64,000 nucleotides of DNA from contig JALVEE010000121.1 of the NCBI GenBank assembly GCA_027008645.1, forward strand, positions 6,740-70,739, in the 5' to 3' direction. Made by a program: the position numbers and the translations under genes. The notes below the pieces were generated by a model that did not search any database, had not been told where the DNA came from, and was given only the letters and a program-made list of their open reading frames with translations. Positions 30,218-59,035 of this stretch are shown piece by piece (positions within the stretch are counted from its first letter, which is position 1; every line of letters starts with the position of its first letter). This DNA comes from Saprospiraceae bacterium (lineage in GTDB: Bacteria > Bacteroidota > Bacteroidia > Chitinophagales > Saprospiraceae).

Positions 30218-30616
30218 TTATATATTTAATTTTTATCCTAACTTTAAACCTTAAACATTTTGGGGTATTTCATTTTTTTTCTTTTTCCTCACTTTGCCTC
30301 TGACTCCTAAAGGAGAATCAACCCGCAAGCAAAAAAATGAAACGCTTTATTTTCAAACCCTGAACTTTATATTTTTATCTTTTATCTTCAAACTTTAAAC
30401 CTTGAACCTTAAACCTTGAACCTTAAACATTTTCTACTTTTATCTTTATAATTTGTACTTTTATCTTTAAACTTTGAACCTTGAACCTTAAACCTTAAAC
30501 CTTAAACCTTGAACCTTAAACATTTTCTACTTTTATCTTTATAATTTGTACTTTTATCTTTAAACTTTGAACCTTGAACTTTAAACCTTAAACCTTGAAC
30601 TTTAAACCTTGAACAC
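30218..30616. repeat. 399-bp composite repeat region filling the nqrA-nqrB gap
   Basis: Read directly: runs of the 8-bp unit aaccttRa. There is a perfect 76-bp direct duplication (30411-30486 = 30504-30579, period 93 bp) containing acttttatcttta twice per copy, plus a short TIR element at 30262-30345. Confidence 0.95.
30262..30345. mobile_element. ~84-bp mini-element whose ends resemble the TIRs of the 220-bp MITE-like family
   Basis: The left end ggggtatttcattttttttc and right end gcaaaaaaatgaaacgc are inverted repeats sharing the core tttcattttttt with the larger element. There is an internal hairpin ctcc-taaa-ggag. Confidence 0.5.
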
Positions 30617-39179: not shown

Positions 39180-42100
39180 ATGGATAGATTCAAATATACA
39201 ATATTATTTTCATTTTTAATTTCCTTTGGTTTTGGTCAGATCACTACCGGCTTTAAGAAATTGAGCGTTCAGGGATATGTATCTCAGAGTATTATCTATA
39301 CAATTGCTCAAGATAGCCTTGGTAATATTTGGGCAGGAACAGAAGAAGGTGTAATGAGATACAATTCAAAAGATTTGTTTTTATACAATAAATACCAAGG
39401 AATGCCTGATTTTGCATCTAACAGGATTTCTGATATTTTTATAGATAGTGAAAATAGAATCTGGGTTGGAGTAGAAACCGGTTTATTGAAGTATGAGCTT
39501 GAAAAAAATATTTTTGTACCGGTTATTCCTGATAAAAATGATAATCTCAATCTGGTAAATTGTATTATTGAAGGAAAGAAAAACAATCTTTGGATAGGAG
39601 ATTTCAATGGATTATGGTTTTTTGATATTAAAACAGACAGTCTTAAAAATGTGTTCAAAGACAAAAGTGTTTTCTCTCTTGAATATACAGGTAATGGACT
39701 TTTAGTAGGAACCAATAAAGGATTGTATTATTTTGATGAAAAAATACAAAAAGCTGAGAAAATCAATATTGATATTAACAATGATAATTTTTCTGTTTCA
39801 TGCATTAAGAAGATTGGGAACAATTATTATATCGGGACAATGGAAAACGGATTATTTCTATTGGACGAAGACAAAAAATTTATTGGGACTGTCGATATAC
39901 CTGTGTTTTCTGATAGATATTTCAGGATAAATTCAATATTAAAACTCAACAATGACCTTGTAGTTATAGGAACAGACGGAGCTGGGCTAATATATCTTGA
40001 CAGGAATAACAATTATATTAATTCTGCTATAAATGATGTGAATGATCCCAACTCAATTTCAAGCAACGGGATATACGATATTTTGCTTGGGAAAGAAAAT
40101 ATTTTATGGATCGCTACGTATGGTGGAGGTATTAATATTTTACCATTCAACAAGCTCAAATTTAGAAATATAAGTCATATTATAAATGACAAAAACAGCC
40201 TGATTTATAATTTCACCAGGGCTATTTGTGAAGATACTCAAAGGAAGATATGGTTTGGAACTAAACAGGGTTTAAGTATTTGGGATAGGGGGCTCAATAA
40301 ATGGATCAATAAACTTGCAATCCAAAAATCATCAAAAGTACCTGATATTATACTTGCTCTTGAAGAAGATGGTGAATATATGTGGATAGCAACATATGGA
40401 AACGGAGTATTTAAAGTTGATAAGCGAGACTACTCATATACTCACTATGGAAATATAAAGAATACCGATAAAAAAATAGGATTGTCCAAAGTTTACTCTT
40501 TATTGAAAGACAGTCATAATAATATATGGCTGGGAGGAATAGACGGGGATTTGCATGAGATAAAAAAAGATGGGGAAATTGTTAGGTATCCAGTTCCCTT
40601 GGTCAAAGATATTATAGAATTGCAAGATGGGGCTATTATCGCAGTAGGTAGAATGGGAGTAAACATTATTAGAAATGGGAAGATAGATACTATAGTTGAG
40701 TTAAGTCAGGGGCATAATGAGCTGCATTATACGACTATTAATTGTGTGAAACAAAACTCAAAAGGTAATTTGATTATTGGTACAAATGGGGAAGGATTGA
40801 TTTTTTATGATATGCATAATAAACTTTTGAAAAAAATAAATATCAGCAATGGAATGCCTTCAGATATAGTTCAGGCTATCCTCATGCAGCAGGATACCGA
40901 CCTTTGGGTTAGCACAACCGGGGGATTGGCACATATTTTTTTAAATAAACAAGATACGGCTATTTACGTCTATAATAAGTTTGACGGGGTGGTTAGCAAT
41001 GAATTTAATTACGGTAGCGCAGCAAAATTGTCAGATGGCTCATTTATGTTTGGAGGAATAGACGGGGTTACAATGTTTGATCCAAAAGCTATAAAACTGC
41101 AAAGAGTAGTTCCCAATGTTGTTATCGAACAATTTAAACTATTCAAAACCAAAGAAACTAAAGACACTTCTTTGACATTATATGTAAACAATGTCAATAA
41201 TTTGCATTTGAGATACAATGAAAATTCATTCAATATAAAATTTGTCGGAATACTGCATAGTGCCCCTTCCAAGGTTTTGTATAGTTGGAAAATGTCAAGG
41301 ATAAATGATATATGGAGTGAGCCTTCAACCGAAACACAAATCAATTTCATAAATCTGTCTCCGGGCAAATATATATTTTATGTTAAGGCTTCCAATAGAG
41401 ACGGTATTTGGAGCCCTGCAAAAATGTTGAGTATTCATATTTCCCCTCCATGGTGGAAAACGACTTTAGCGTATTTATTTTACATTATCTTATTCCTTTT
41501 GGCTGTTGGTGCATTGTTTTACGGGATTAATTTGTATTTGACAAAAAGAAATGCCGAGGAGCAGATCAATTTCTTTAACAGTATTACTCATGAATTGAAA
41601 ACCCCTCTCACCATTTTATTATCAACTATTGAAACATTCCCTAAAATAGCAGATAATCCGGCATTATTGAAAATAAAATCTACTTCAAGGCAGTTGATCA
41701 ATCTGTTTGAACAATTGCTTAATTTTCATCTCGTAACTTCTGATGAGCAAAAGAGCGATAATATTAAAGAGCTGAGTCTTAATACATATATTGGAAAAGT
41801 GATTAGCAGATTCAAACCTTTATTGGAAGAGAAAAGTATTACAGTTGAAGTTGTCAATAAATGGGAAAAAGAAAATCAAAATGACTATTTTTATTATGAT
41901 AAATATATTTTGGATAAAATACTTTTCAATCTGTTGTCAAATGCTATAAAATATTCAAATAAAGGCGGAAAAATCAAAATTGTTTTGGATAAGAAAAAAG
42001 ATGATCTGATTATCTCTATCACGGATAATGGTATTGGAATCCCCAAAGACCAACAAAAATATATACTAAAAAGATATTACAGAGGTCGAAATGCCATAAA

Positions 42101-43091
42101 CAGTAATTTGCCCGGAACAGGACTGGGATTAATGATAGTCAAAAATATTATAGAAAAAGATAAGGGATTTATAAAATTTACCAGTGTTGAAAACAAAGGT
42201 TCTACCTTTACTGTGTCGCTTAAAAACAAAAAGCAACAATTTATTGAAAAAAATAAATTAAAAAATGATGAGGTTCAGCTTCCGGTTGCAGAGAGGGAGG
42301 CTCTCGACGAATATAGCGACAGCAAAATATTAATAGTTGAAGATAATAATGAATTGCGAGCCGATCTAGTTGATAAACTGGGAACATATTTTCAGGTTTA
42401 TGAAGCTGAAAACGGAAAAGAGGGATTAAAAATAGCTATGGATATTTTTCCCGATTTGATAATTACCGATCTTATTATGCCGGAAATGGATGGCTTGGAA
42501 ATGTCCCGTGCATTGCAGGATGACATCAATCTCAATCATATTCCAATTATAATGATGACCGTTTTGACAGGAAATAAACAAAAAATGGAAAGTGTGGAGA
42601 GTGGAATTTCAATTTATTTAGAAAAACCGGTTGATTATAATTATTTATTGGCTAAAGTGATAAATTCGCTGGGTTGGTCAAAAAAATTAAGAGAGAAATA
42701 TCTTCATGAGTTCGACGTGGGAAGTGCAGCTAAGTTTAGGACTCAAAAAGATGCCGACTTCATAAATAAATTGGAAAATTATGTTCTTTCAAATATCAAT
42801 GAAGAAGACCTCTCTGTGCATAATCTTTGCAGTTTTGTCAATATGAGTAGAACTGCCCTTTATATGAAACTTAAAAATATGGTAGATCTTTCACCTCAAA
42901 ACTTTATCATTCATACAAGATTGAAATATGCTAGAAAAAAACTTATAGAAGGTAAGATGAATGTTAAAGAAGTAGCGTATAGTTCAGGTTTTTCCAATCC
43001 AAAATATTTCAGTACATCATTTAAAAAGCTTTTTGGTATTTCTCCGACTACTTTTTTGAAAAATCTGAAAAACAATAATACCGAACAATAA
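39180..43091 (+). CDS. Hybrid two-component system (HTCS) sensor kinase/response regulator with an AraC-type output domain
   Basis: Periplasmic beta-propeller and Y_Y_Y sensor region, one TM helix, H-box FFNSITHELKTPLT, HATPase (GTGLGLMIVK), receiver (ILIVEDNNELR...DLIITDLIMPEMDG) and AraC HTH (VAYSSGFSNPKYFSTSFKKLFGISPTTF). This is the classic Bacteroidota PUL regulator. Confidence 0.93.
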   Translation: MDRFKYTILFSFLISFGFGQITTGFKKLSVQGYVSQSIIYTIAQDSLGNIWAGTEEGVMRYNSKDLFLYNKYQGMPDFASNRISDIFIDSENRIWVGVETGLLKYELEKNIFVPVIPDKNDNLNLVNCIIEGKKNNLWIGDFNGLWFFDIKTDSLKNVFKDKSVFSLEYTGNGLLVGTNKGLYYFDEKIQKAEKINIDINNDNFSVSCIKKIGNNYYIGTMENGLFLLDEDKKFIGTVDIPVFSDRYFRINSILKLNNDLVVIGTDGAGLIYLDRNNNYINSAINDVNDPNSISSNGIYDILLGKENILWIATYGGGINILPFNKLKFRNISHIINDKNSLIYNFTRAICEDTQRKIWFGTKQGLSIWDRGLNKWINKLAIQKSSKVPDIILALEEDGEYMWIATYGNGVFKVDKRDYSYTHYGNIKNTDKKIGLSKVYSLLKDSHNNIWLGGIDGDLHEIKKDGEIVRYPVPLVKDIIELQDGAIIAVGRMGVNIIRNGKIDTIVELSQGHNELHYTTINCVKQNSKGNLIIGTNGEGLIFYDMHNKLLKKINISNGMPSDIVQAILMQQDTDLWVSTTGGLAHIFLNKQDTAIYVYNKFDGVVSNEFNYGSAAKLSDGSFMFGGIDGVTMFDPKAIKLQRVVPNVVIEQFKLFKTKETKDTSLTLYVNNVNNLHLRYNENSFNIKFVGILHSAPSKVLYSWKMSRINDIWSEPSTETQINFINLSPGKYIFYVKASNRDGIWSPAKMLSIHISPPWWKTTLAYLFYIILFLLAVGALFYGINLYLTKRNAEEQINFFNSITHELKTPLTILLSTIETFPKIADNPALLKIKSTSRQLINLFEQLLNFHLVTSDEQKSDNIKELSLNTYIGKVISRFKPLLEEKSITVEVVNKWEKENQNDYFYYDKYILDKILFNLLSNAIKYSNKGGKIKIVLDKKKDDLIISITDNGIGIPKDQQKYILKRYYRGRNAINSNLPGTGLGLMIVKNIIEKDKGFIKFTSVENKGSTFTVSLKNKKQQFIEKNKLKNDEVQLPVAEREALDEYSDSKILIVEDNNELRADLVDKLGTYFQVYEAENGKEGLKIAMDIFPDLIITDLIMPEMDGLEMSRALQDDINLNHIPIIMMTVLTGNKQKMESVESGISIYLEKPVDYNYLLAKVINSLGWSKKLREKYLHEFDVGSAAKFRTQKDADFINKLENYVLSNINEEDLSVHNLCSFVNMSRTALYMKLKNMVDLSPQNFIIHTRLKYARKKLIEGKMNVKEVAYSSGFSNPKYFSTSFKKLFGISPTTFLKNLKNNNTEQ

Positions 43092-43400: not shown

Positions 43401-45059
43401 ATGAAAAATATTGATTTTATTAAAATGTTATTTATTGTTGGTTTCGGATTGCTGTTATCAATAAATTGTAAACCCGAAAAAAAACAAGAAGTTGAGAAAA
43501 AAACTGAAATTCAAAAACCGAATATCGTCTTTTTCATAGCGGATGATATGGAAAGATACATGTTCAATTGCCTGAAAGAAGGTAAAGGTAAAAACCTCTC
43601 GCCTCATCTTGATAAATTGGCAAATGAGGGAGTATTGATGCTAAATCAATATGTTAGTTCTGCTGTTTGTACTCCCAGTAGATTTGGATGTCTTACAGGT
43701 CAATATGCCAGTAGAGCCAAGAGTAAATATATGACAGATTTCACAAAGAAAATGGATGGACAAACTGTTGTACAATGGAATTCCTATATTGTGTCGGGAC
43801 AACCGACTATCGGTACTTATATGAAAGACCTGGGATATACAACAGGATTTTACGGAAAAAATCATGCAGTCGAGGCACCCGGATGGAAAAAACTTCCCCT
43901 AGACACAGATCCAACTACTCCTGAAGCAGTCAAAGTATTGAAAAATAATGCTAAAATAATTAGCGCACAACTAAAAAAATGCGGTTTCGATTATTCCGGA
44001 GGGCTTTATCAAGACAATCCAAGCTATCTCGGTCCTGAAAAATTAAGAGTTCAAAATCTGGATTGGATTACCGATAATGCCTTGGATTTCCTTAACAAAA
44101 CACCGGATAAACCTATATTCCTTTACTATGCCACAACAGTACCACACGGACCATCCAATGCAGAACAATCATGGTTTGGAGACAGAAGAGTTACCGCCGA
44201 AGGAATTTTGGATAAAGCTCCGACCTGTTTACCTCCTAAAGAGACTATTCCAAAACGGCTTATAGAGGCGGGATTGGTAAAAGAAGGAGAAAAAGTTCCC
44301 GATGCATTGGGCAATACTCTGTGGATTGATGATGCTCTTGGTGCATTGATGGACAAACTTGAAGAGCAAGGAAAACTGGATAATACCATTATATTTTTCT
44401 TCAATGACCACGGGCAACATGCCAAAGGTTCTGTATATGAAGGTGGGGTCAGTTCCCCCTCGTTGATTTGGAAAAAAGGAGGATTCAAGACTGGACATGT
44501 TAATAAAGCATTGGTATCAAACATTGATTTCGCCCCCACAATCATAGATATGGCAGGAGGCGATCCTCAAAAGATCAAAGCATTTGACGGCAAGAGCTTT
44601 TTACCAATATTAGATGCAAAAAAAGATAAAATCAGAGAATCGCTCTACTTCGAAATGGGATTCTCACGTGGTATCTTAAAGGACAGCTTCAAATATATAG
44701 CTCTTAGATACCCTGAGTATGCGATGAAATGGGACTTAAAAAAACGTAAGGAAATATTGGATAAATGGAATAACTTTAGAATAAAAAATAAATTGGAATA
44801 TCATTTTACCGATCCGTCTTTACCTTTTTCACATCTTATGTTGATACCCGGTGGAGGCGATGCCGAATTTCCTTCGACTAAAAGATATAAGCATTATTAT
44901 GATACTGATCAATTATACGACTTGAGAACAGATCCGAAAGAACAGAATAATCTATTCAATAATCCAAAATACAAGGATAGAGTTAAAGACTTGCAAAATG
45001 AATTGAAAAAGTATCTCGCTAAACTTCCGGGAAAATTTGGAGAGTTTAAAAAACAATAG
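43401..45059 (+). CDS. S1-family sulfatase (formylglycine-dependent), lipoprotein
   Basis: Lipobox LLLSINC, PNIVFFIADDM, and formylglycine motif SAVCTPSRFGCLTGQYASR. The C-terminal LYDLRTDPKEQNNL is typical of sulfatases. Confidence 0.9.
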   Translation: MKNIDFIKMLFIVGFGLLLSINCKPEKKQEVEKKTEIQKPNIVFFIADDMERYMFNCLKEGKGKNLSPHLDKLANEGVLMLNQYVSSAVCTPSRFGCLTGQYASRAKSKYMTDFTKKMDGQTVVQWNSYIVSGQPTIGTYMKDLGYTTGFYGKNHAVEAPGWKKLPLDTDPTTPEAVKVLKNNAKIISAQLKKCGFDYSGGLYQDNPSYLGPEKLRVQNLDWITDNALDFLNKTPDKPIFLYYATTVPHGPSNAEQSWFGDRRVTAEGILDKAPTCLPPKETIPKRLIEAGLVKEGEKVPDALGNTLWIDDALGALMDKLEEQGKLDNTIIFFFNDHGQHAKGSVYEGGVSSPSLIWKKGGFKTGHVNKALVSNIDFAPTIIDMAGGDPQKIKAFDGKSFLPILDAKKDKIRESLYFEMGFSRGILKDSFKYIALRYPEYAMKWDLKKRKEILDKWNNFRIKNKLEYHFTDPSLPFSHLMLIPGGGDAEFPSTKRYKHYYDTDQLYDLRTDPKEQNNLFNNPKYKDRVKDLQNELKKYLAKLPGKFGEFKKQ

Positions 45060-45079: not shown

Positions 45080-47518
45080 ATGAAATACGGATTTTTTGAT
45101 GATAAGAGAAGAGAATATGTGATTACAAATCCCAAGACTCCATACCCTTGGATAAATTATTTGGGAAATCACGATTTTTTTTCTCTTATATCCAATACTT
45201 CCGGCGGATATTCATTCTATAAAGATGCAAAGTACCGGAGACTGACACGTTACCGTTATAATAATGTACCTACAGACGACGGAGGAAGATATTTCTACAT
45301 TAAAGATGGAGATACGGTTTGGTCTCCCGGATGGAAGCCTGCAAAAACAACCCTTGATAGCTATCAATGCAGACATGGACTGAGTTATACTATCATCCAA
45401 GGTAAAAAGGATGATTTGGAAGTAGAAGTCCTGTATTTTGTTCCTTTGCATTTCACAGGTGAGATTCAAAGGGTGAAATTGAAGAATACCGGAACAAAAA
45501 ATAAATCTTTCAAACTGTTTTCTCTTGTCGAATGGGCATTGTGGAATGCTGAGGACGATATGACCAATTTTCAGAGAAATTTTAATACCGGTCAAGTAGA
45601 AGTTGATGATAGTGTCATTTATCATAAAACAGAATTTAGAGAAAGGAGAAATCATTACGCTTTTCATTCCGTTAACCAAAAACACGATGGATTTGATACT
45701 GACCGTGAGACATTCTTAGGGCTTTATAATGGATTTAATGAACCGCAAAATGTTTTGTCCGGAAAACCTGCTGATTCAATTGCACACGGTTGGTCACCAA
45801 TAGCTTCACATTATTTTGATATAGAACTGGAGCCGGGGGAAGAAAAATCATTGATATTTATGCTTGGTTATGTGGAATTGCCGGAAGAAGATAAATGGGA
45901 ATCGAAAGGTATAATTAATAAAAAACCTGCCGAGGCGATGATTGCAGAATTTGATACTGATGAAAAAATCGAAAAAGCTTTGGAAGAATTGGCTAAATAT
46001 TGGGATGATTTGTTGTCAAAATTCTATTTGAAATCAAGTGATCCTAAATTGAACCGTATGGTCAATATCTGGAATCAATACCAATGCATGATCACATTTA
46101 ATATGTCCAGAAGCGCTTCTTATTTCGAATCGGGAATTGGTAGAGGCATGGGTTTCAGAGACTCAAATCAGGATTTGATCGGTTTTGTTCATCAATCACC
46201 GGATCGGGCTAGACAACGAATAATCGATATCGCTTCAACTCAATTTCCAGACGGTAGCTGTTATCACCAATATCAGCCGTTAACAAAAAGGGGGAATGAT
46301 GCGATTGGAAGTGGCTTTAACGACGACCCTCTATGGTTGATTTTAGGAACAACAGCATACTTAAAGGAAACCGGCGATTTCAGTATTCTGGATGAATCAG
46401 TACCATTTGACAATAACAAAAGCCTTGCAAAATCATTGTTTGACCATTTGACAATATCGTTTGACCATGTGATAAATAATCTCGGACCACACAATCTTCC
46501 GTTGATAGGAAGAGCTGACTGGAATGATTGTCTTAATCTCAATTGTTTTTCCAAAGATCCCAATGAATCATTTCAAACTACTGAAAACAAAACAGAAGGT
46601 TCTAAAGCCGAATCTTTAATGATTGCCGGTCTGTTTGTTGTTTATGGTACGGAATATGTGGAACTATGTAAATTCTTAGATAAAGACAAAGAAGCAAAGA
46701 GAGCTCAAAAACACGTAGATAAAATGATAGAAGCCGTAAAAAAATACGGTTGGGATGGTGAATGGTTTCTCAGAGCCTATGATTTTTTTGGAAATAAAAT
46801 TGGAAGCAATGAAAATGAAGAAGGAAAAATTTTCATTGAATCCAATGGATGGTGCAGTATGGCCGGTATTGGACTTGAAGACGGATTGGTCAAAAAATCA
46901 TTAAACTCAGTTAAGAAATATTTGGATACAGACTATGGTATTATATTAAATAGTCCGAGTTTCACAAAATACTATATCGAAATGGGAGAAATCTCCACTT
47001 ATCCGGAAGGATATAAGGAAAATGGCTCCATATTTTGCCACAACAACCCATGGATTATCATTGCAGAAACCGGTATTGGAAGAGGTGAAATGGCATTTGA
47101 CTATTATAAAAAAATCGCCCCCGCTTATCTGGAGGATATCAGCGATTTACATAGAACAGAACCTTATGTCTATGCACAAATGATTGCAGGTAGAGATGCC
47201 TATAAGCCTGGCGAAGCAAAAAACTCCTGGCTTACCGGTACGGCTGCTTGGAATTATTATGCAGTGACACAATATATTTTGGGAATCAGACCGGATTATG
47301 ACTCACTGATTATCGACCCATGCATTCCGGGATCTTGGAAAGAATTCAAGATTAAAAGAGTTTTTAGAGGAGCGATTTACAATATAGAAGTCAAAAACCC
47401 AAATCACATCTCCAAAGGAATCAATAAGATCATTGTCGATGGAAAAGAACAATCCGGTAACAGATTACCTGTTTTTAAAGAAAAAACAGAACATGATATT
47501 ATAGTAATACTCGGATAA
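45080..47518 (+). CDS. GH94 glycoside phosphorylase, cellobiose phosphorylase-like
   Basis: From memory it aligns nearly end to end with characterised cellobiose phosphorylase (e.g. Cellulomonas/Cellvibrio gilvus CBP). Matching blocks are [130 protein letters not shown] and [11 protein letters not shown]. It has no signal peptide, so it is cytoplasmic. Confidence 0.9.
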
Positions 47519-47551: not shown

Positions 47552-48997
47552 ATGCTAAACAAAGAAGAACGCAAACCCTTAATCGCACCGGAAGACAAAG
47601 TGCCTTTTAAAAGCAAATTGGCTTATGCTGCTGCCGGTCCGGTGGATGTTTTAGGAATTTGGGTTCTCGTGAGTATAGCATATCAGGTATTCAATATGGA
47701 ACTAAAACTTCCTCCTACTTATGTCGCCATTATACTGATGTCACTAAGATTATGGGATGGTGTATTGGATCCTATTATGGGTTGGATATCAGACAATACT
47801 CGTACCAAATGGGGTCGAAGAAGACCATTTATTTTTGTTGGTGCGATAATGGCAGGACTCCTATATCCCCTCATTTGGTGGTTTCCTACTGATTTATCAC
47901 AAGTAGGTATTATGTTTTGGGTTATTGGATTCGGTATTATTTTTTATACATTTTTCACGATTTGGGGCATTCCTTACCAAAGCCTTTTGATGGAAATGAC
48001 CCCGGATTACAATGAACGAACACGTGTTGCAGAAATGAGAAGTTATTTCCAAACAATTGCAGGTTTTGCAAATGGATGGATATGGTGGTTGTCAATGTTA
48101 CCGGTATTTTTTATAGTAAAAGACGGTGTTGAAGTACCAAGCCCGCTAAATGGAATGAGATATATCAGTATAATAATCGGTGCCTTGATCATTATTCTCG
48201 GTATTTTACCGGCAATTTTTCTAAAAGAAAGGTATTATGAAAGTGATTTGGTACAAAACCAAAAACAAATAAAATTATGGACAAGTATAAGAGAGACTTT
48301 AAGCAATAGACCGTTTCTTATATTGAGTCTAATCACAATCTTCTTCTTGATGGGACAAGCGATTTTTGATGGTTACGGTCGTTATGTCGGCACCTATTAT
48401 GTTCTTGGAGGAGACTGGGGAGAAGGAGCAAAATTTGCCGGATATGGCACAGTGATATATACGGTTTTTAGCCTGATTTTTATTCCTATTTTTCGCTCTT
48501 TATCTGAAAAAATCGGTAAGAAAAAAGTACTTACGATATCGATGACTCTTGCTATTATTTCTTATGCAACAACTTGGTGGACTTTTACACCAAGTAATCC
48601 TTGGTTGATGCTGCTAAATACGGTTTTTATAGGAGCAGGATATGCAGGATTGTGGCTGATGCTACCGTCTATGCAAGCAGATGTAGTTGATTACGACGAA
48701 TTAAAAACGGGAGAAAGGCGTGAAGGAGGTTTTTCTTCTATATATTCTTGGATTTTAAAATTGAGCTTTATGGTTGGTTTTTTGATTACAGGACCTTTGC
48801 TTGAGATAACAGGATTTGATGCTGAATTGGGAAGTACTCAAGCGGAAGGAGTATATACAAATATGAGAATTGGATTCTTGGTTATTCCCGTTGTTGCATT
48901 AGGGATTGCATTGTATTTGTTAAGATCTTTTCCTATTACAGCAAAAAAAGCAAATGAAATACGAACAGAATTGGAAAATAGAAGAGGAAATGTATAA
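47552..48997 (+). CDS. GPH-family (MFS_2) glycoside:cation symporter
   Basis: 12-TM protein with the GPH signature LRLWDGVLDPIMGWISDNTRTKWGRRRPFIFVGA. It lies between the two phosphorylase genes. Confidence 0.85.
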   Translation: MLNKEERKPLIAPEDKVPFKSKLAYAAAGPVDVLGIWVLVSIAYQVFNMELKLPPTYVAIILMSLRLWDGVLDPIMGWISDNTRTKWGRRRPFIFVGAIMAGLLYPLIWWFPTDLSQVGIMFWVIGFGIIFYTFFTIWGIPYQSLLMEMTPDYNERTRVAEMRSYFQTIAGFANGWIWWLSMLPVFFIVKDGVEVPSPLNGMRYISIIIGALIIILGILPAIFLKERYYESDLVQNQKQIKLWTSIRETLSNRPFLILSLITIFFLMGQAIFDGYGRYVGTYYVLGGDWGEGAKFAGYGTVIYTVFSLIFIPIFRSLSEKIGKKKVLTISMTLAIISYATTWWTFTPSNPWLMLLNTVFIGAGYAGLWLMLPSMQADVVDYDELKTGERREGGFSSIYSWILKLSFMVGFLITGPLLEITGFDAELGSTQAEGVYTNMRIGFLVIPVVALGIALYLLRSFPITAKKANEIRTELENRRGNV

Positions 48998-49028
48998 ATA
49001 AAATAATCACGCAGTACACTTACGCTAC

Positions 49029-49140
49029 AACCTGAAACATTGAACCTGAAACATCGAACCTGAAACATCGAACCTGAAACATTGAACCTGAAACATTGAA
49101 CCTGAAACATTGAACCTGAAACATTGAACCTTAAACATAA
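49029..49140. repeat. Tandem array of a 14-bp unit aacctgaaacatYg (7 full copies plus 1 degenerate)
   Basis: Read directly: units start at 49029, 49043, 49057, 49071, 49085, 49099 and 49113, with a degenerate unit at 49127. The array ends 16-18 bp before ATG 49156. Confidence 0.97.
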
Positions 49141-49155
49141 AAGAAGAAGAAGAAT

Positions 49156-51564
49156 ATGAACTACGGATATTTTGATGATAAGAACAGAGAATATATAATC
49201 ACCAATCCTAAGACCCCTGTTAAATGGATAAATTACGTCGGCACACTTTCTTTTGGTGGAATCGTTGATCATACGGGCGGTTCGCTTATTACCAAGGGTG
49301 ACCCGGCATTGAATAGAATCGTAAAATATATACCCCAATTACCAAACTCTGATTTCAAGGGAGAAAGCCTGTACTTGAGAATTAAAGAAAAAGACGGATA
49401 TAAAGTTTTTTCACCATTTTTTGTACCTACTCTTGACAGATACGACAAGTATGAATGTCATGTAGGGCTTGGATACCAAAAAATCATTTCGGAGTTTTAT
49501 AATATAAAAACAGAGGTTACAATTTTTGTGCCTACCGGTTCAAATGTAGTAGTCAGGGATATAAAAGTGACAAATTTAAGGGATGAAAATGTAGAAATAG
49601 ATATTATTCCGGTTGTGGAATTTAGTCATTTTGATGCGCTCAAGCAATTCACAAATGCTGATTGGGTTCCTCAAACAATGACTGTTGATGCAGAAAGAAA
49701 AGACGATGGCACAGTTGTGCTAAAGCAATATGCATTTATGAAAAAAGAGTATGAAAACAATTTTTTCACATCCAATTACCCTGCAGATTCATTCCAAACA
49801 GATAGAAAACTATTCCTTGGGGACAATGAATATGGGACTTGGAAAAATCCCCTTGAATTACAAAACTCAAGTTTATCTAATTATGAAGCAAGGAGGGGGG
49901 ATAATATTGCTGCAATTTTGCATAAAATGGGCACTGTCTCTCCAAATGAAACTGTTCGTATCGTAACTCAATTAGGGCAATCAGAACCGGATAATATTGA
50001 TGCTTCTATTGAAAAATACAAGAACTTCATAAATGTCAATAAAGCATTTAACGAATTATCGCAATTTTGGGATGATTATTTATCCAAAATGTACTTTGAC
50101 ACACCTGACCCTGCATTCAATTCGATGATTAACATTCACAATCCGAGACAATGTCATACTACTTTGAATTGGTCAAGATACTTATCTCTGTATCAACTCG
50201 GTTTGGGAGCAAGAGGCTTAGGTTTCAGAGATAGTTCTCAAGATGTATTGGGCATACTACCCGCTGTACCTGATGAAGGGAGAAAACTGATAGAAAAATT
50301 ATTGTCTGTACAAAAGCCCGATGGTTCCGCAATGCATCAATTTTTCCCTTTGACTATGGAAGCAAACGAAGGCGATTCCCGTGAAGAAGGCGAAAAGCAA
50401 TATTATGGAGACGATCATTTATGGATAATCCTTTCTGTTTGTGATTACTTGAAAGAAACAGGAGACTACGATTTTCTGGACAAAGAAATAAGCTTTTATG
50501 ACAAAGACTTGGAACTTGAAGAAAGGGAAAAAGCTACGGTTTTTGAACATCTCAAAAGATCCTTGGATTTTACAAAAAATAATACAGGCAAACACGGATT
50601 ACCATTGCTCGGATTTGCTGATTGGAATGATACTGTCAATTTGCCAGGAGATGCTGAAAGTGTTTTTATCGCAAATCTCTATGGAAGAGCATTATTAAAA
50701 ATGATAAGCCTATTGACATATTTAGGGCAGGAAGACTTATTAAATGAATATAAAAAAGACTACGAACATATGAAATCCATTGTCAACAATAATTGTTGGG
50801 ATGGAGAATGGTATATCAGATATATAGAAGAAGATGGGACACCGGTCGGGTCTAAGCAAAATCAACAAGGGCAAATATACACAAATGCTCAATCTTGGAG
50901 TGTATTGTCAAGGTTTGCAAGTTTAGAAAGGGCTAAAACCGCATTGGATTCAGTAAATAAAATAATGAATACTGAATTTGGCATCAAATTGAGCTATCCC
51001 GGATACAATGGCTTCGACCCTAATATTGGAGGCGTAACAACATATCCTCCGGGAGCAAAAGAAAACGGTGGCATTTTTCTTCATTCCAATCCTTGGGTTA
51101 TAATCGCAGAAACACTTCTTGGTAATGGTGATAGAGCTGTCCAATATTACAATCAAATAAATCCTGCTGCTAAAAATGATATAATAGACAGGTATGAATT
51201 AGACCCCTATTGTTATCCTCAAAACATTTTGGGTGATGAGCATCCCCAATTTGGCTTAGCAAGAAATCATTGGTTGTCCGGAACTTCTTCGTGGGTATAT
51301 CAAGCAGCAACCAAATATATACTGGGTATCAGACCACAGCATACAGGATTAAAAATAGATCCTTGCATACCAAAAAATTGGGATGGATTTAAAGCCGTAA
51401 GAAAATTTAGAAATTCGACCTACAATATCACTGTGCGTAATCCTGATAAAGTTTCAAAGGGAGTGACCAAGATAACTGTAGATGGCAATCAAATTGACGG
51501 CAACATAGTCCCGGTATTCGATGATAATAGTACCCATAATATTGAAGTGATTATGGGAATTTAA
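49156..51564 (+). CDS. GH94 glycoside phosphorylase, divergent paralog of unknown specificity
   Basis: It shares the GH94 scaffold (MNYGYFDD.NREYIITNPKTP..WINY.G, GFRDSSQD, GFADWNDT.NL, GAKENGGIFLHSNPWVIIAE, NHWLSGTSSW). It differs strongly from the upstream CBP-like copy in the N-terminal domain and around the catalytic loops. It has no signal peptide. Confidence 0.85.
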   Translation: MNYGYFDDKNREYIITNPKTPVKWINYVGTLSFGGIVDHTGGSLITKGDPALNRIVKYIPQLPNSDFKGESLYLRIKEKDGYKVFSPFFVPTLDRYDKYECHVGLGYQKIISEFYNIKTEVTIFVPTGSNVVVRDIKVTNLRDENVEIDIIPVVEFSHFDALKQFTNADWVPQTMTVDAERKDDGTVVLKQYAFMKKEYENNFFTSNYPADSFQTDRKLFLGDNEYGTWKNPLELQNSSLSNYEARRGDNIAAILHKMGTVSPNETVRIVTQLGQSEPDNIDASIEKYKNFINVNKAFNELSQFWDDYLSKMYFDTPDPAFNSMINIHNPRQCHTTLNWSRYLSLYQLGLGARGLGFRDSSQDVLGILPAVPDEGRKLIEKLLSVQKPDGSAMHQFFPLTMEANEGDSREEGEKQYYGDDHLWIILSVCDYLKETGDYDFLDKEISFYDKDLELEEREKATVFEHLKRSLDFTKNNTGKHGLPLLGFADWNDTVNLPGDAESVFIANLYGRALLKMISLLTYLGQEDLLNEYKKDYEHMKSIVNNNCWDGEWYIRYIEEDGTPVGSKQNQQGQIYTNAQSWSVLSRFASLERAKTALDSVNKIMNTEFGIKLSYPGYNGFDPNIGGVTTYPPGAKENGGIFLHSNPWVIIAETLLGNGDRAVQYYNQINPAAKNDIIDRYELDPYCYPQNILGDEHPQFGLARNHWLSGTSSWVYQAATKYILGIRPQHTGLKIDPCIPKNWDGFKAVRKFRNSTYNITVRNPDKVSKGVTKITVDGNQIDGNIVPVFDDNSTHNIEVIMGI

Positions 51565-53156: not shown

Positions 53157-54133
53157 TTTTAAACTCAAAATTGAATTTTGCTCTATTGCCGGCATTCCTA
53201 ATCAGTTTGTTTACTGTATTTAACTCAATCAACGCTCAAAATGACACCGTAGAAATATACAACAACCATTTAAAGGCAAAAATAGCTTTAAAAGGTGCTG
53301 AGATAATTTCATTGTTTGACAAAACCGATAGTATCGAATATATATGGCAAGGAAGTGATGAGTCTTGGAAGAAACACTCTCCTATCTTGTTCCCTTTTGT
53401 CGGAAAAATCAAAGGGGGCTTTTACAAAATAGCCTGCAAAAAATACAAAATGAAAAACCACGGCTTTGCTTCCCGTAAAATATTTAAAATATCAGAACAA
53501 TCCCCCTCAAAATTAGTCTTAGTCTTGGAAAGTAATCCCTCTACATTAAAAATTTATCCTTTTAAATTCAGATTGACCGTATGTTATTCCTTGGAGGGCA
53601 ATGAACTCAAAGTAACCAATACAGTTGAAAATATCGACACAAAGAATATATTTTTCTCTATAGGAGCGCATCCGGGTTTCAATATCCCATTTGTTCCTAA
53701 TGAAAAATTCGAAGACTACTTCATCGAGTTTGACACAACAGAAGTTGCCGATCGTATCGTTCTTTCCAAGCCAAAAGGATATCCGACTGATAGTTTGCTG
53801 CGCAATTATCTAGGCAATGGTAATATTCTGCCTCTCAACCACGATTTATTCCGGGATAGAGTAATCATCTTAAGGGGATTGAAATCAAAAACATTGACAA
53901 TCAGAAGTAAAAATTCAAAAAGAGGAATACGAGTCAAAGGAATTGATAAATTTCAATATCTGGGCATATGGACTTTTGTGAAAAAAGATGAACCGTTTGT
54001 CTGTATAGAACCTTGGTACGGTATATCCGATTATGTCAATTCATCCGGAGAAATAGCAGAAAAAACAGGGATTCAATCATTGGAATCCGGAAAAGTATTT
54101 AAAATGAAATACAGTATTGAAATACAAAAATAA
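53153..54133 (+). CDS. Aldose 1-epimerase (galactose mutarotase-like, LacX/YihR-type) family protein with a signal peptide
   Basis: SPILFPFVGK, NHGFAS and IGAHPGFNIPF are typical of the mutarotase-like fold. The ATGA start overlaps the stop of the preceding hydrolase. N-terminal signal LPAFLISLFTVFNSINAQ. Confidence 0.75.
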   Translation: MILNSKLNFALLPAFLISLFTVFNSINAQNDTVEIYNNHLKAKIALKGAEIISLFDKTDSIEYIWQGSDESWKKHSPILFPFVGKIKGGFYKIACKKYKMKNHGFASRKIFKISEQSPSKLVLVLESNPSTLKIYPFKFRLTVCYSLEGNELKVTNTVENIDTKNIFFSIGAHPGFNIPFVPNEKFEDYFIEFDTTEVADRIVLSKPKGYPTDSLLRNYLGNGNILPLNHDLFRDRVIILRGLKSKTLTIRSKNSKRGIRVKGIDKFQYLGIWTFVKKDEPFVCIEPWYGISDYVNSSGEIAEKTGIQSLESGKVFKMKYSIEIQK

Positions 54134-54173
54134 AATTTTTAAACAGATGGAATCTTTGATAAAAAATAAACAG

Positions 54174-55643
54174 ATGAAAAATCTTTTATTCCTTGCTCTT
54201 TTTACAATATTAGGAAGTACTGCTTGCCATTTAGACACAAAAACAAACAAAGTAAGCAAAAAACCCACAGACAAACCTAAAAACGTACTATTTATCGCTG
54301 TTGATGACTTGAAACCATTATTAGGTTGTTATGATACCCCATTAATAAAAACACCTAATATTGACAAATTGGCTTCACAGGGTTATGTATTTAAAAACAA
54401 TCATTGCCAACAAGCGGTATGCGGTCCGTCGAGAGCGAGTATCCTGACTGGTAAAAGGCCTGATTATACCAAAATTTGGAATTTAAAAACATTGATAAGG
54501 GATAAAAACCCTGATATTGTGACTATGCCCCAATACTTCAAACAATTGGGGTATCAAACAGCTGCTGTTGGTAAAATATTTGACTATAGGTCGGTAGATG
54601 AATTGAATGATTCCCTTTCTTGGAGTTATAAATACGATAATTTCAAGCATCATACGGATATTGGAAAGGAATATATCAAATCCAAGGAGAGGGTGTCGAT
54701 GGAAATAACAAATGTTCCTGATAGTATGACAGCTGATGGAGAAGTAGTAAGGCGCAGTGTTAAGTACCTAAAGAAATTTGCAAAAGAAGACAAACCTTTT
54801 TTTATGGCTGTCGGATTTTACAAACCTCATTTACCCTTTGTAGTACCTCAAAAATATTGGGATTTGTACAGAGATGAGGATATCAAGCTCCCCCCTTACA
54901 GGAAAGCGCCCGTTGGTGCACCAAAATATGCTACTCAACCAAGTTGGGAATTGCGAGGTGGATACGCAGATATCCCCAAGGATTACAATGTAGAAATTCC
55001 TGTACAAAAACAGTTAGATCTTATTCACGGATATTATGCTTGTGTATCGTTCATAGATCAGCAGATAGGTAGAGTTTTGGACGAATTGGACAAACTGGGA
55101 TTGCGTGAAAGTACGGTAATTGTCCTTTGGGGTGACCACGGTTGGCATCTCGGAGATCACGATATGTTTTGCAAGCATACCAATTACGAGCAAGCTACAC
55201 GTTCCCCTTTGATTTTTTCCACTTTTAAGGGCAAAACAGGTTCAACCGATTCTCCTACAGAATTTGTGGATGTATATCCTACACTTTGTGATTTATCGGG
55301 GATCAAAACGCCTCAAGACCTTGACGGCAAAAGTCTTGTTCCTCTAATTGATGGAAAAGTACAAAAGATTAAAGATTATGCTGTCAGTCAATTTCCAAGG
55401 GAAGGCAACAAAATGGGCTATGCATTCAGGGATGAAAGATACCGGTATGTGATTTGGGTTAAAAATCACTTCAATTCGGAAAAACATTTTGATGATTCCC
55501 TTGTAGATGCGGAAGAACTCTATGATTATAATGTAGATCCTTTGGAAACAAAAAATCTGATTTCTGAAAATAAATACTTAAAAACAGCTTCAAAATTCAG
55601 AAAAACAGCAAAGGATTTTTTCAAAAAATTTGAGAAAAAATAG
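54174..55643 (+). CDS. S1-family sulfatase, iduronate-2-sulfatase-like, lipoprotein
   Basis: MKNLLFLALFTILGSTAC lipobox. NVLFIAVDDLKPLLGCYDTPLIKTPNIDKLASQG...QQAVCGPSRASILTGKRPD parallels the human IDS N-terminus. WGDHGWHLGDH is also present. ATG 54174 is preferred over the overlapping upstream ATG 54117. Confidence 0.9.
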   Translation: MKNLLFLALFTILGSTACHLDTKTNKVSKKPTDKPKNVLFIAVDDLKPLLGCYDTPLIKTPNIDKLASQGYVFKNNHCQQAVCGPSRASILTGKRPDYTKIWNLKTLIRDKNPDIVTMPQYFKQLGYQTAAVGKIFDYRSVDELNDSLSWSYKYDNFKHHTDIGKEYIKSKERVSMEITNVPDSMTADGEVVRRSVKYLKKFAKEDKPFFMAVGFYKPHLPFVVPQKYWDLYRDEDIKLPPYRKAPVGAPKYATQPSWELRGGYADIPKDYNVEIPVQKQLDLIHGYYACVSFIDQQIGRVLDELDKLGLRESTVIVLWGDHGWHLGDHDMFCKHTNYEQATRSPLIFSTFKGKTGSTDSPTEFVDVYPTLCDLSGIKTPQDLDGKSLVPLIDGKVQKIKDYAVSQFPREGNKMGYAFRDERYRYVIWVKNHFNSEKHFDDSLVDAEELYDYNVDPLETKNLISENKYLKTASKFRKTAKDFFKKFEKK

Positions 55644-55870: not shown

Positions 55871-58800
55871 ATGAAAACAAAACTACTTTTTATTATTTCG
55901 ATTTTTTTTCTATCTCTTTCTTTTACCTATGCGCAGAGGACGGTAAAAGGGCAAGTAATAGATAAGGATACCAAAGAACCATTGATTGGGGCATCGGTTG
56001 TCATTCCCAATCTTAACAAAGGGGCAATTACTGATTTGGATGGTAAATTCAGCATTGAATTACCTGCAAACACGGAAAGGATTAGAGTCTCATACATAGG
56101 TTATCAGACTAAAACAGTTAAGCTTGAACCCAACAAAGATGATTATCTCATAAAGCTTGCTTCCGGGAAAGTACTTGATGAGGTTGTCGTGGTAGGATAT
56201 GGAAAATTAAAAAAACGTGACTTGACAGGATCTGTTTCCAAATTGGTGGAAGATCCAAAAACAGCAAGACAGTATAGTGGTGTTGATGAGCTATTGCAAG
56301 GAAGAGTATCGGGAGTAAATGTTACATCCAATGCCGGATCTCCCAATGGTGCTGTCAGTGTCAGAATTAGAGGAATCAATAGTCTTAGAGGAAATAATGA
56401 GCCGCTTTATGTTATTGACGGTGTCATTATTAGTACAGCAGGGGAAGATGTTCTTGAAGCGACTCCTGATGCCAACGAGATGCAAACAGCTCAAAATGGG
56501 CTTACGGGTCTTAATCCGAGGGATATTAAAAGTATTGAGATATTAAAAGATGCTTCAGCAACGGCAATTTACGGGTCGAGAGGTGCTAATGGAGTAGTAT
56601 TGATCACTACAAAAAGCGGTTCAAAAACAGGCGGTAAGCCCAAAATCAGTGCCTATGCTTCAAGTACTATGGCATCAATAACTAAGAAAATTGATATGTT
56701 GGATCCGTTATCATTTGCAAGATATCAAAATGATGCTTTGATTGCCGATGGTAATAACCCAAAATATGTTATTGAAGGCGATAACATTTATTCAATTTCA
56801 GAATACTCTGATACCAATATCGTAAAAAGCCCTGATGCTGCAAAAAAAGTAAACTGGCAAGATGAAATATATCAAAAAGCTATCAGTTACAATACAGGAT
56901 TCTCATTCGGAGGAAAGAAAAATAAGACAGGATACTACTTCTCAGCCGGATTCAATAATATCAACGGGATTGTGGAAACTACAAATCTTAAAAAAGGAGA
57001 TATACGATTGAATCTAAATTCAAGACTAACTTCAAAACTAACTTTTGACAACAGGGTCGCTCTTACATACCAAGAAGGTTCATTTGCTCAAGCAGGAAGT
57101 CGTTCGGGAGGTAATAGAAGTTTCACAAAACAAGTATTAACTTATAGACCGCTGATCGATAAACTTGAAGACGATGTGGATTTGGAAATATCCAACCCGT
57201 ATTCTTGGCTTACCGATTTTGATGACCTGATAAAGGAGTTAAGAGCCAATTTATCAACATCGTTCAATTATGAAATAATAAAAGGTCTCAGTTATACATT
57301 GAGAGGAGGAGTCGATTACAGATTTAAGAATAGGGACAAATGGTACGGTACTGAAATTTTCAAAGGAGCGAAAGTGAATGCATTAGCCGATTATTCGACC
57401 TTAAATAGAAAATCATATACTCTTGACAATATAATAAACTACAATACTAAAATAAATAAAAAACACAGAATTAATTCTATGTTTGCGGTAACTTATGACG
57501 GTGTAATAAGTTCCAATGATATTTTTGAGATAACTGACTTTCCGATTAAAACCCTACGTTCCAAAGCACCTCAATTAGGTCAATTGATTACACAGCCAAG
57601 AACTCTACTGAATAGAGATGAGGCGATTTTCTCCACTTTGGGAAGAGTCAACTACAGTTATAAAAGCAAATATATATTGACAGCAAGTATTAGAGCAGAT
57701 AAGTCTTCCAAGTTTACCAAAGGACGACAATGGGGATACTTCCCGTCAGCATCTTTTGCTTGGAGACTCGGTGAAGAAAAGTTTATAAAAAATCTTAATT
57801 GGTTTTACAATCTAAAATTGAGATTAGGTTGGGGGATAACGGGAAATCAGGGAATACGCCCATATCAAACACTTTCAACATATTCAACAGTTTACTATGT
57901 AGATGGTAGAGACAATACGGTTATTGGTAGTGTACCAAGCAGAATTGCAAACCCGGATTTAACTTGGGAGTCAACCGAACAATATAATTCGGGATTGGAT
58001 ATATCAGTACTTTCAGGAAAGCTGAATTTTGTAATTGATGCCTACTACAAAAAGACCAAAAACCTATTGCAAAATATCAGTTTACCCACCTCAACAGGTT
58101 TTTCAAAAATGACCGTAAACAGGGGTGAAATTGAAAATAAAGGTGTAGAGTTGTCTATGGATGCCGATCTTTTGCGCAAAGATGATTTGAATTTAACAGT
58201 AGGAGGACATATTTCATTCAATAGAAACAAGGTGCTCTCTCTGGGTTTGCCGGCTTCAACTGTTTGGATTGACGGAAAAGAAAGGCAAGAATCATTCTAT
58301 TTTGGTAATTATATATCCACAGGAGGATATTTCAAAGCTCCGGCAAATATATTTATGGAAGGACAACCGATAGGTATGTTTTGGGGATATAAAACTAATG
58401 GAGTATATAAATCACAAGAAGAAGCAGCTGCAGGTCCTACTTATAAAGGCAATGCAAATAAAGCAGGCGATTTGGTTTTTGTAGATGTAAATGGAGATGG
58501 TAATATCAATGATGATGACAGGACTTTCATCGGTAATCCAAATCCGGATTTCACTTATGGATTTGATTTGGTAGCAAAATACAAAAGATTTACAGTCAAA
58601 GCTCTGTTTGACGGAGTATATGGCAATGACATAGCAAATGGTTATAATCTTGAGATTGGTTTTGCCGAAGGGCGATTCAAAAATATATTGAAGAACGCTT
58701 ATGAAAATGCTTGGTCTGAAGAGCATCCTGACAATACAAGACCAAGGTTGAATTACGATTTAATGAACCAAGGATTTGTTGATCTAATCGTAGAGGACGG

Positions 58801-59035
58801 AAGTTATTTCAGATTAAATATACTTACACTTTCTTATGATTTACCTGTAAAAACGTCTTATGTTGACAATGTAAATATTTATGTTTCCGGAAGAAATTTA
58901 TTTTACATAACCAAGTATTCAGGATACGAACCTCAAATAACAAGTTTTCTTGGTGACGGTACTATTATCGGAGTTGATTGGGTAGGAACACCAAACGTGA
59001 GATCATTTTTGTTTGGAGTTAATTTGAGCTTTTAA
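55871..59035 (+). CDS. SusC/RagA-family TonB-dependent outer-membrane transporter
   Basis: Signal peptide, carboxypeptidase-regulatory-like domain (VKGQVIDKDTKEPLIGASVVIPN), plug with VVVGYGKLKKRDLTGSVS and SIEILKDASATAIYGSRGANGVVLITTK, a ~1050-aa barrel and a terminal F. Confidence 0.95.
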   Translation: MKTKLLFIISIFFLSLSFTYAQRTVKGQVIDKDTKEPLIGASVVIPNLNKGAITDLDGKFSIELPANTERIRVSYIGYQTKTVKLEPNKDDYLIKLASGKVLDEVVVVGYGKLKKRDLTGSVSKLVEDPKTARQYSGVDELLQGRVSGVNVTSNAGSPNGAVSVRIRGINSLRGNNEPLYVIDGVIISTAGEDVLEATPDANEMQTAQNGLTGLNPRDIKSIEILKDASATAIYGSRGANGVVLITTKSGSKTGGKPKISAYASSTMASITKKIDMLDPLSFARYQNDALIADGNNPKYVIEGDNIYSISEYSDTNIVKSPDAAKKVNWQDEIYQKAISYNTGFSFGGKKNKTGYYFSAGFNNINGIVETTNLKKGDIRLNLNSRLTSKLTFDNRVALTYQEGSFAQAGSRSGGNRSFTKQVLTYRPLIDKLEDDVDLEISNPYSWLTDFDDLIKELRANLSTSFNYEIIKGLSYTLRGGVDYRFKNRDKWYGTEIFKGAKVNALADYSTLNRKSYTLDNIINYNTKINKKHRINSMFAVTYDGVISSNDIFEITDFPIKTLRSKAPQLGQLITQPRTLLNRDEAIFSTLGRVNYSYKSKYILTASIRADKSSKFTKGRQWGYFPSASFAWRLGEEKFIKNLNWFYNLKLRLGWGITGNQGIRPYQTLSTYSTVYYVDGRDNTVIGSVPSRIANPDLTWESTEQYNSGLDISVLSGKLNFVIDAYYKKTKNLLQNISLPTSTGFSKMTVNRGEIENKGVELSMDADLLRKDDLNLTVGGHISFNRNKVLSLGLPASTVWIDGKERQESFYFGNYISTGGYFKAPANIFMEGQPIGMFWGYKTNGVYKSQEEAAAGPTYKGNANKAGDLVFVDVNGDGNINDDDRTFIGNPNPDFTYGFDLVAKYKRFTVKALFDGVYGNDIANGYNLEIGFAEGRFKNILKNAYENAWSEEHPDNTRPRLNYDLMNQGFVDLIVEDGSYFRLNILTLSYDLPVKTSYVDNVNIYVSGRNLFYITKYSGYEPQITSFLGDGTIIGVDWVGTPNVRSFLFGVNLSF

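Follow-up and report, generated by a model that had tools for sequence, protein, structure and literature searches.

A 14-nucleotide tandem array before a GH94 phosphorylase gene of a Saprospiraceae bacterium as a probable microsatellite of a genome-wide heptamer family

Is a tandem array lodged immediately in front of a glycoside phosphorylase gene a device that sets the expression of this gene, or is it repeat DNA that the operon simply tolerates? The question arises from a window of 64,000 nucleotides, the whole stretch of DNA analysed here, which belongs to a Saprospiraceae MAG of 4.09 Mb, 366 contigs and 33.7% GC (G000 in the following). The features on which the argument rests are, all given on the plus strand:

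47552 to 48997, plus strand: gene of an MFS_2 sugar symporter, next to the array on its 5' side (ORF; Pfam MFS_2, E = 7.9e-76)
48998 to 49028, plus strand: non-repeat spacer of 31 nt from the symporter stop to the array (sequence)
49029 to 49126, plus strand: seven full 14-nt units AACCTGAAACATYG, each made of two RAACNTK heptamers
49127 to 49138, plus strand: degenerate terminal unit AACCTTAAACAT, which matches the family-typical end GAACCTTAAACAT
49139 to 49155, plus strand: purine-rich leader of 17 nt, AAAAGAAGAAGAAGAAT, with A at -3 (sequence)
49156 to 51564, plus strand: GH94b, a diverged GH94 phosphorylase paralog, 3' of the array (Pfam Glyco_hydro_94, E = 7.9e-134)
30218 to 30616, plus strand: nqrB-nqrA spacer of 399 nt with three RAACNTK blocks antisense to the nqr genes

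Tandem Repeats Finder described the array as a period-14 repeat from 49029 to 49138 with 7.9 copies of the consensus unit AACCTGAAACATTG, 96% matches, no indels and a score of 199, the highest of all period-14 arrays in the genome. Five of the seven full units are exact and two neighbouring ones (49043 and 49057) carry a T>C exchange at position 13; the eighth, terminal unit comprises 12 nt. At up to two mismatches, the array pattern matched the window 14 times, compared with 1.14 ± 0.85 matches in 100 shuffles. Read in register, each unit resolves into the two heptamers GAACCTG and AAACATT, both of which fit RAACNTK; the repeat can also be written (GAACCUGAAACAUU)n. The coordinates, copy counts and distances given for the array in an earlier, sequence-only reading of this DNA all proved correct by Tandem Repeats Finder and by reading of the sequence. 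That reading also had the array cover the initiation region of GH94b, from which it is instead separated by the 17-nt purine-rich, non-repeat leader. With its end 17 nt before the GH94b ATG, the array has the 5'-leader placement of SSR contingency loci, and it is not placed between promoter elements. REP, BIME and MITE elements are marked by a palindromic core or by terminal inverted repeats, and neither was found, as the unit has no self-complementarity and the spacer no inverted partner. BLAST of the array flanks revealed no second allele of the locus in the assembly, and a metagenome scan with a 30-mer from the symporter end had as its sole match a contig binned into the MAG of a sister species. 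Since the array occurs at the same site in this independently assembled sister species, it is not an assembly artefact.

The intercistronic spacer between symporter and GH94b measures 158 nt in total. It contains no terminator-like site and no sigma-70-like promoter, the latter being a consensus unsuited to Bacteroidota; the Bacteroidota promoter motifs, TTTG-N17-23-TAnnTTTG and TAnnTTTG alone, were found neither in the spacer nor near the array. Judged from the sequence, co-transcription of symporter and GH94b would be the simplest inference, and a short spacer without a terminator-like site or a Bacteroidota-type promoter motif fits the polycistronic transcript that had been assumed for this locus. 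According to Pfam, GH94 catalytic and supersandwich domains are present in 49156-51564 and also in 45080-47518 (GH94a), and the cluster around the array further encodes a hybrid two-component regulator with an HTH_18/AraC domain (39180-43091), two sulfatases, a GH39-like protein and an aldose epimerase. Two ORFs at 55871-59035 (1054 aa) and 59092-60651 (519 aa) are taken, by their size, as a putative SusC/SusD-like pair, and we read the gene cluster with its short spacers as a polysaccharide-utilisation locus. The sulfatase genes (43401-45059 and 54117-55643) stand in an operon-like cluster with the two GH94 phosphorylases and the MFS_2 symporter; sulfatases paired with phosphorolytic beta-glucoside enzymes are an unusual combination. 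The closest solved relative of GH94b is the cellobiose phosphorylase 3qde, with 568 bits, whereas GH94a scores 1350 bits. GH94b is 74-76% identical to proteins of Kiritimatiellales, Melioribacteraceae and Flavobacteriia MAGs and, at 79%, barely closer to its counterpart in a congener (G007). This near-equal identity to a congener and to distant MAGs suggests, at the level of sequence comparison, a lateral spread of the GH94b paralog.

The array is part of a family that extends throughout the genome. Runs of at least three RAACNTK heptamers occur 57 times, compared with 0-1 in shuffled genomes, and 54 of them lie between ORF proxies, in both orientations. Merging of nearby runs yields 34 islands, which by crude ORF proxies (longest ORFs of at least 100 aa, first ATG as start) are convergent in six cases, divergent in three, co-directional antisense in 12, co-directional sense in six, at contig ends in four and inside ORF proxies in three. 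The sequence-only reading had proposed a dispersed repeat family because the unit is one mismatch from a sequence in the nqr spacer, and these 34 islands, set against the 0-1 runs expected, bear this out. That the family is tied to gene leaders, as was also supposed, is not supported by the census, and the refuting condition named in that reading applies in part: six islands lie between convergent gene ends, so that the family is not leader-specific, and co-directional islands are antisense twelve times versus six times sense.

In the nqrB-nqrA spacer, the heptamers are AAACCTT, GAACCTT, AAACTTT and AAACATT. The sequence GAACCTTAAACATT, present at 30418-30431 and 30511-30524, is one mismatch away from the array unit in the register GAACCTGAAACATT, AACCTTAAACATT is found at 30247, and the family-typical end recurs at 30247, 30419 and 30512. 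The spacer as a whole is made up of heptamer blocks, two copies of a 93-nt unit and a mini-element that has been inserted. This element, of about 85 nt with inverted ends (30260-30345), is absent from the nqr spacer of the sister species, matches dozens of sites in G007 and the sister species at 81-92% identity and has the look of a MITE-like family that is active in the genus. The essential respiratory operon nqr tolerates recent repeat expansion antisense to its transcript.

Heptamers are favoured in this genome beyond the RAACNTK pattern. There are 17 perfect arrays of at least three copies with period 7, every one between ORFs; for periods 5, 6, 8, 9, 10 and 11 the corresponding numbers are 8, 7, 1, 4, 0 and 0. 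Whichever detector was used, period 7 stood out among periods 5-16, and 22 of about 47 inter-ORF arrays with at least four copies found by Tandem Repeats Finder have periods of 7, 14, 21 or 28. Further heptamer families are TGCTTGT, TCGCAAC-type, ATCTCTC/ATCACTC and TACTTTT/ATCTTTA. Two arrays between ORFs, (TGCTTGT) x 12.4 at C111:10535-10621 and (TGCTTAC) x 7 at C54:3263-3311, are 100% pure. Pure arrays of unrelated heptamers suggest a heptamer-generating process that is independent of unit sequence.

Orientation is not evenly distributed. In the 80 nt that precede start codons, 17 genes have the GAAC strand in sense and six have it in antisense; in the 80 nt that follow stops, the sense count is nine and the antisense count 15. 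Among heptamer arrays nearer to the upstream stop, the sense strand is G-rich in 10 of 11. For 17 heptamer arrays, GC skew did not correlate significantly with relative position in the spacer (Spearman rho = -0.17, p = 0.52), and the pattern appears only when arrays are split by nearer stop versus nearer start. We hence regard the orientation bias as a trend, drawn from small numbers and crude gene models. The GH94b array falls into the minority class, with its C-rich strand sense and its end near a start, as do the arrays at C212:8172 (7-12 nt from the start) and C121:78361 (16 nt). At least these three sense arrays end 7-23 nt before a start, a placement of sense arrays that is more orderly than pure neutrality predicts.

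Comparison with relatives, all of them draft MAGs in which repeats are often unassembled, shows how quickly these arrays change. In the sister species, also a Saprospiraceae MAG (G003), GH94b is 96% identical and adjoins the same symporter and GH94a. The array is found at the same site with 4.7 copies of AACTTGAAACATTG, compared with 7.9 in G000, and the two arrays differ in length by 42 nt (3 x 14). All units of the sister species differ at position 4, where they have T (G in the degenerate first unit) instead of the C of G000, which is a concerted change or an independent expansion. That copy number changes at this locus, as the sequence-only reading had surmised, is thus seen between species as a whole-unit difference (7.9 versus 4.7) together with a concerted C>T unit change. 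The GAA run before the GH94b ATG is shorter in the sister species (AAAAGAAGAAG), A at -3 is common to both, and the 31-nt spacer at 48998-49028 aligns with far less conservation between the two species than the flanking coding DNA. In G007, with GH94b at 79% identity, the spacer is much longer and contains unrelated repeats, and no array was found there.

Other loci behave likewise, and none of the five orthologous arrays compared between G000 and its sister species is unchanged, each differing in its length or in whether it occurs at all. G000 has an array at C212 that the sister species lacks, the array at C121:78361 has 17.9 heptamers versus about 6, and the C252 array 9.7 versus 6.7, a 21-nt indel. 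The nqrB-nqrA spacer measures 399 nt in G000, about 115 nt in the sister species and 18-90 nt in G001, G004, G005 and G007. A four-unit pattern search in 31 related genomes gave 84 matches in G000, 56 in G005, 38 in G003 and 0-3 in the others; among the eight species sampled from the genus, the RAACNTK family is abundant in these three. From the turnover at all five loci and the restriction to three genomes it follows that the arrays are young, labile and lineage-restricted.

At the level of RNA, the sense strand of the array has the composition 44% A, 24% C, 13% G and 20% T (C/G = 1.86), with a CC dimer every 14 nt over its 110 nt. ATG does not occur in it, and each of the three frames contains stops; an array that codes for a peptide was rejected, as every sense frame is closed. 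The antisense strand, in contrast, carries eight ATG and is nearly stop-free. The minimum free energy of the leader at 48990-49200 is -6.4 kcal/mol versus -13.8 ± 2.8 for dinucleotide shuffles (z = +2.65), a weaker fold than in all 200 of them, and in the centroid structure the array leader is unpaired. No Rfam family matched 48700-49400 at E ≤ 1. Bacteroidota make no use of Shine-Dalgarno pairing to start translation; mRNA structure and key nucleotides tune initiation, A at -3 being favourable, and AUG is avoided close to start codons (PMC6847099). In a thermodynamic model that leaves aside proteins, Rho and co-transcriptional effects, the mean probability of being unpaired over -20 to +12 of the GH94b start was 0.72-0.76 with 1-16 copies of the unit and 0.66 with none. 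When the array was reverse-complemented, the modelled value fell to 0.50 and the minimum free energy to -37 kcal/mol. The model hence predicts that array orientation matters for accessibility of the start site and that copy number does not. This does not support a further proposal of the sequence-only reading, namely that copy number could alter RNA structure, since modelled start accessibility is independent of copies and the leader is less structured than its shuffles; the phase-variation-like control of GH94b put forward in the same reading may still apply.

We consider it probable that the array is a slippage-driven heptamer microsatellite of the LSSR/STRR-like type, and that the operon spacer tolerates it owing to a sense strand that is inert in both folding and initiation. 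It would be a hypermutable member of the lineage-specific RAACNTK family that fills intergenic spacers, lengthening and shortening by 7 or 14 nt at a time through replication slippage, a mechanism that we infer from the observed step sizes and concerted change. Within the 158-nt operon spacer, its A/C-rich, G-poor strand lies in mRNA sense. As this strand has no AUG, UGA stops in three frames and no self-pairing, it is predicted to form an unstructured, translationally inert spacer, and GH94b would, according to the model, keep its A-rich initiation region open at any copy number. The array would then be tolerated, orientation-filtered repeat DNA rather than a dedicated GH94b switch. Its score, the highest of any short-period array in the genome, and its 96% purity could nevertheless reflect a recent expansion under selection rather than drift.

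Among known repeats, the family comes closest to the heptamers among long simple sequence repeats (LSSR), to the extent that the survey of Mrazek et al. 2007 is summarised in PMC4679880; there, heptamers are the most abundant LSSR class in most prokaryotic genomes surveyed. On both sides, 7-nt units are tandemly repeated above chance, mainly in non-coding DNA, with a sporadic, lineage-specific spread, which for LSSR is ascribed in that summary to polymerase slippage. The RAACNTK arrays show tandem units of 7-nt multiples, many dispersed non-coding loci and length differences in unit multiples, all as in LSSR/STRR-like repeats; they differ from the LSSR heptamers in that the amplified unit is here a 14-nt double heptamer. 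The STRR heptamers of heterocystous cyanobacteria, reportedly described by Mazel et al. in 1990, are said to form several families of intergenic tandem arrays per genome, and the co-existence of several heptamer families as intergenic arrays in the present genome resembles them. It is not a strict STRR case, because the host is a Saprospiraceae rather than a cyanobacterium and the units are RAACNTK and not, for example, CCCCAGT. The MIRU VNTRs of Mycobacterium tuberculosis are intercistronic, with units of about 40-100 bp, strain-variable copies, an operon orientation and possible translation. The GH94b array shares with them the lodging of a variable-copy tandem repeat between operon genes, but its units of 7 or 14 nt are closed in every sense frame.

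TAACTGA heptamers have been found in Beggiatoaceae, cyanobacteria and five Bacteroidetes, often just before starts (MacGregor 2015, PMC4679880), with 7-nt indels between close strains, absence from close relatives and other heptamers mixed in (PMC4679880). The GH94b locus is similar in that a heptamer array lies in forward orientation a few nt before a start, indels come in 7-nt steps and a close relative is without the array. It differs in that only a minority of RAACNTK islands lie upstream of a start in forward orientation, and no set of two or more TAACTGA direct repeats was found in this genome. Our literature search found no description of the RAACNTK family, of the Saprospiraceae genus that hosts it or of tandem intergenic repeats in Saprospiraceae. 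The GH94b array is a further example of an already known class of bacterial repeats, within a genome-wide, fast-changing heptamer family.

Tuning by copy number would give the array a function. The transcribed array might be a length-variable platform for Rho or for a single-strand RNA-binding protein (S1, Csp, RRM), with slippage grading the expression of GH94b and later genes; we judge this rather unlikely. Rut sites are stretches of RNA, of at least some 70-80 nt, that are unstructured, untranslated, rich in C and poor in G. The array lies in sense orientation in an untranslated spacer close to the GH94b ATG, its leader is predicted to be unstructured and its composition is C over G with regular CC dimers; on the other hand, 14-nt spacing and 24% C are weakly rut-like. 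The genome has a rho gene, and copy number differs between the sister species, but modelled start accessibility is flat across copy numbers. A precedent for 5' UTR heptamer tracts that grade expression is the (ATCTTTC)n tract of Haemophilus influenzae hmw1A, where a long hairpin with a G-rich partner is cleaved by RNase III and more copies lead to lower expression (PMC12721329). The tract upstream of hmw1A and the AGAT tract of uspA2 are the analogues named for such tuning, and binding of a post-transcriptional regulator was proposed by MacGregor for heptamers just before starts (PMC4679880). Like hmw1A, GH94b has tandem heptamers in its presumably transcribed leader, with a copy number that would likewise change by slippage. 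The hmw mechanism, however, requires a long hairpin with a G-rich partner arm, and there is no such arm in the GH94b leader, which is less structured than its shuffles; folding rules out an hmw-like hairpin. Furthermore, GH94b encodes a cytoplasmic catabolic enzyme of an environmental bacterium, unlike the surface antigens typical of contingency loci. Nor does one reader acting on RNA account for the RAACNTK family, since its arrays are found in either orientation and also between convergent genes.

A different suggestion concerns where the array came from. It might be the footprint, or a solo arm, of an IVS-like cassette with heptamer arms that was inserted and then amplified, instead of being born from a chance local seed, which we regard as doubtful. 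On contig C57 of G000, a 23S_rRNA_IVP gene (PF05635, 106.7 bits) is flanked by RAACNTK arrays with inverted arms at 831-851 and 1345-1365, and IVP genes adjoin such arrays also in G003:C148 and G005:C76. What the sister species lacks at C212 is a single block that comprises the array and about 60 nt of non-heptamer sequence, and the terminal GAACCTTAAACAT is common to several loci. The GH94b array, in contrast, comes with neither a partner arm nor a target-site duplication nor any non-repeat cargo, and as the sister species already has an array at this site, an insertion event is not visible. IVP genes are present in 26 of 31 genomes across the order, and their number is unlinked to abundance of the family. 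As a determinant of RAACNTK abundance, IVP gene copy number was ruled out by G004 (18 IVP matches, 0 arrays) and G002 (10, 0). The link between IVP genes and arrays is real at C57, G003:C148 and G005:C76 but does not explain the distribution of the family. Even if correct, the cassette would account for origin and not for function, and it is compatible with the microsatellite explanation. At the C57 locus (L111, C57:1-1740), the IVP gene spans about 932-1320, and both of its spacers read, in order, stop, G-rich GTTC-type heptamers, A-run, C-rich GAAC-type units and start; the two neighbouring genes have the same spacer layout.

Both suggestions may be joined in one. Sense arrays with C over G at 7-23 nt before starts (GH94b, C212:8172, C121:78361 and the C57 genes) would then be unstructured, length-variable platforms for Rho or single-strand RNA-binding proteins that give graded, slippage-driven contingency control of operon parts, in this case the distal portion of the polysaccharide-utilisation locus, and these arrays as well as the G-rich arrays after stops would derive from arms of IVS-like cassettes with 23S_rRNA_IVP. 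We offer this as a speculation with little chance of being right. That the array is a DNA operator array, for example for the AraC-type domain of the adjacent hybrid regulator, and drives an internal GH94b promoter is extremely improbable: AraC-family binding sites are typically direct repeats and the regulator is encoded in the same cluster, but no -7 motif (TAnnTTTG) and no -33/-7 pair occur in or near the spacer, the 34 islands of the family are unrelated to one another and include the nqr operon as well as 3'-3' spacers, and unit sequence and copy number differ even in the sister species, with the array absent in G007.

Returning to the array as a tolerated microsatellite, its interest lies in the class to which it belongs. 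The reason for bacterial heptamer arrays is unsettled, and slippage favoured by the DNA polymerase has been proposed. The present genome offers a clean, small example: one unit family in three of eight species, turnover at every compared locus and an orientation bias that places the C-rich, AUG-free strand ahead of starts and the G-rich one behind stops. Were expression indeed tuned by copy number, this would be contingency-type control of carbohydrate catabolism in a free-living Bacteroidota. Heptamer arrays should not be taken for regulatory elements from sequence without expression data.

Such arrays also break short-read assemblies and create false ORFs on the stop-free strand. Islands of the family stand at contig ends of C57, C62, C277 and C313, and these four cases make heptamer repeats one cause of the fragmentation into 366 contigs. 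On the minus strand, 48838-49338 reads as a TTG-initiated ORF of 166 aa that runs across the whole array and into the symporter gene and GH94b, the two real genes; this frame owes its existence solely to the scarcity of stops on the antisense repeat strand, and in automatic annotation it is likely a false gene call. Apart from the heptamers, the genome contains a high-copy tandem family with a 51-nt unit, the consensus of which begins with CCAAGACTCGGAAGCTCAAAGAG. Its arrays have up to about 10 copies and occur on at least five contigs, at C223:2392-2936, C44:6674-7202, C101:1913-3460, C219:36156-37018 and C39:14691-15228.
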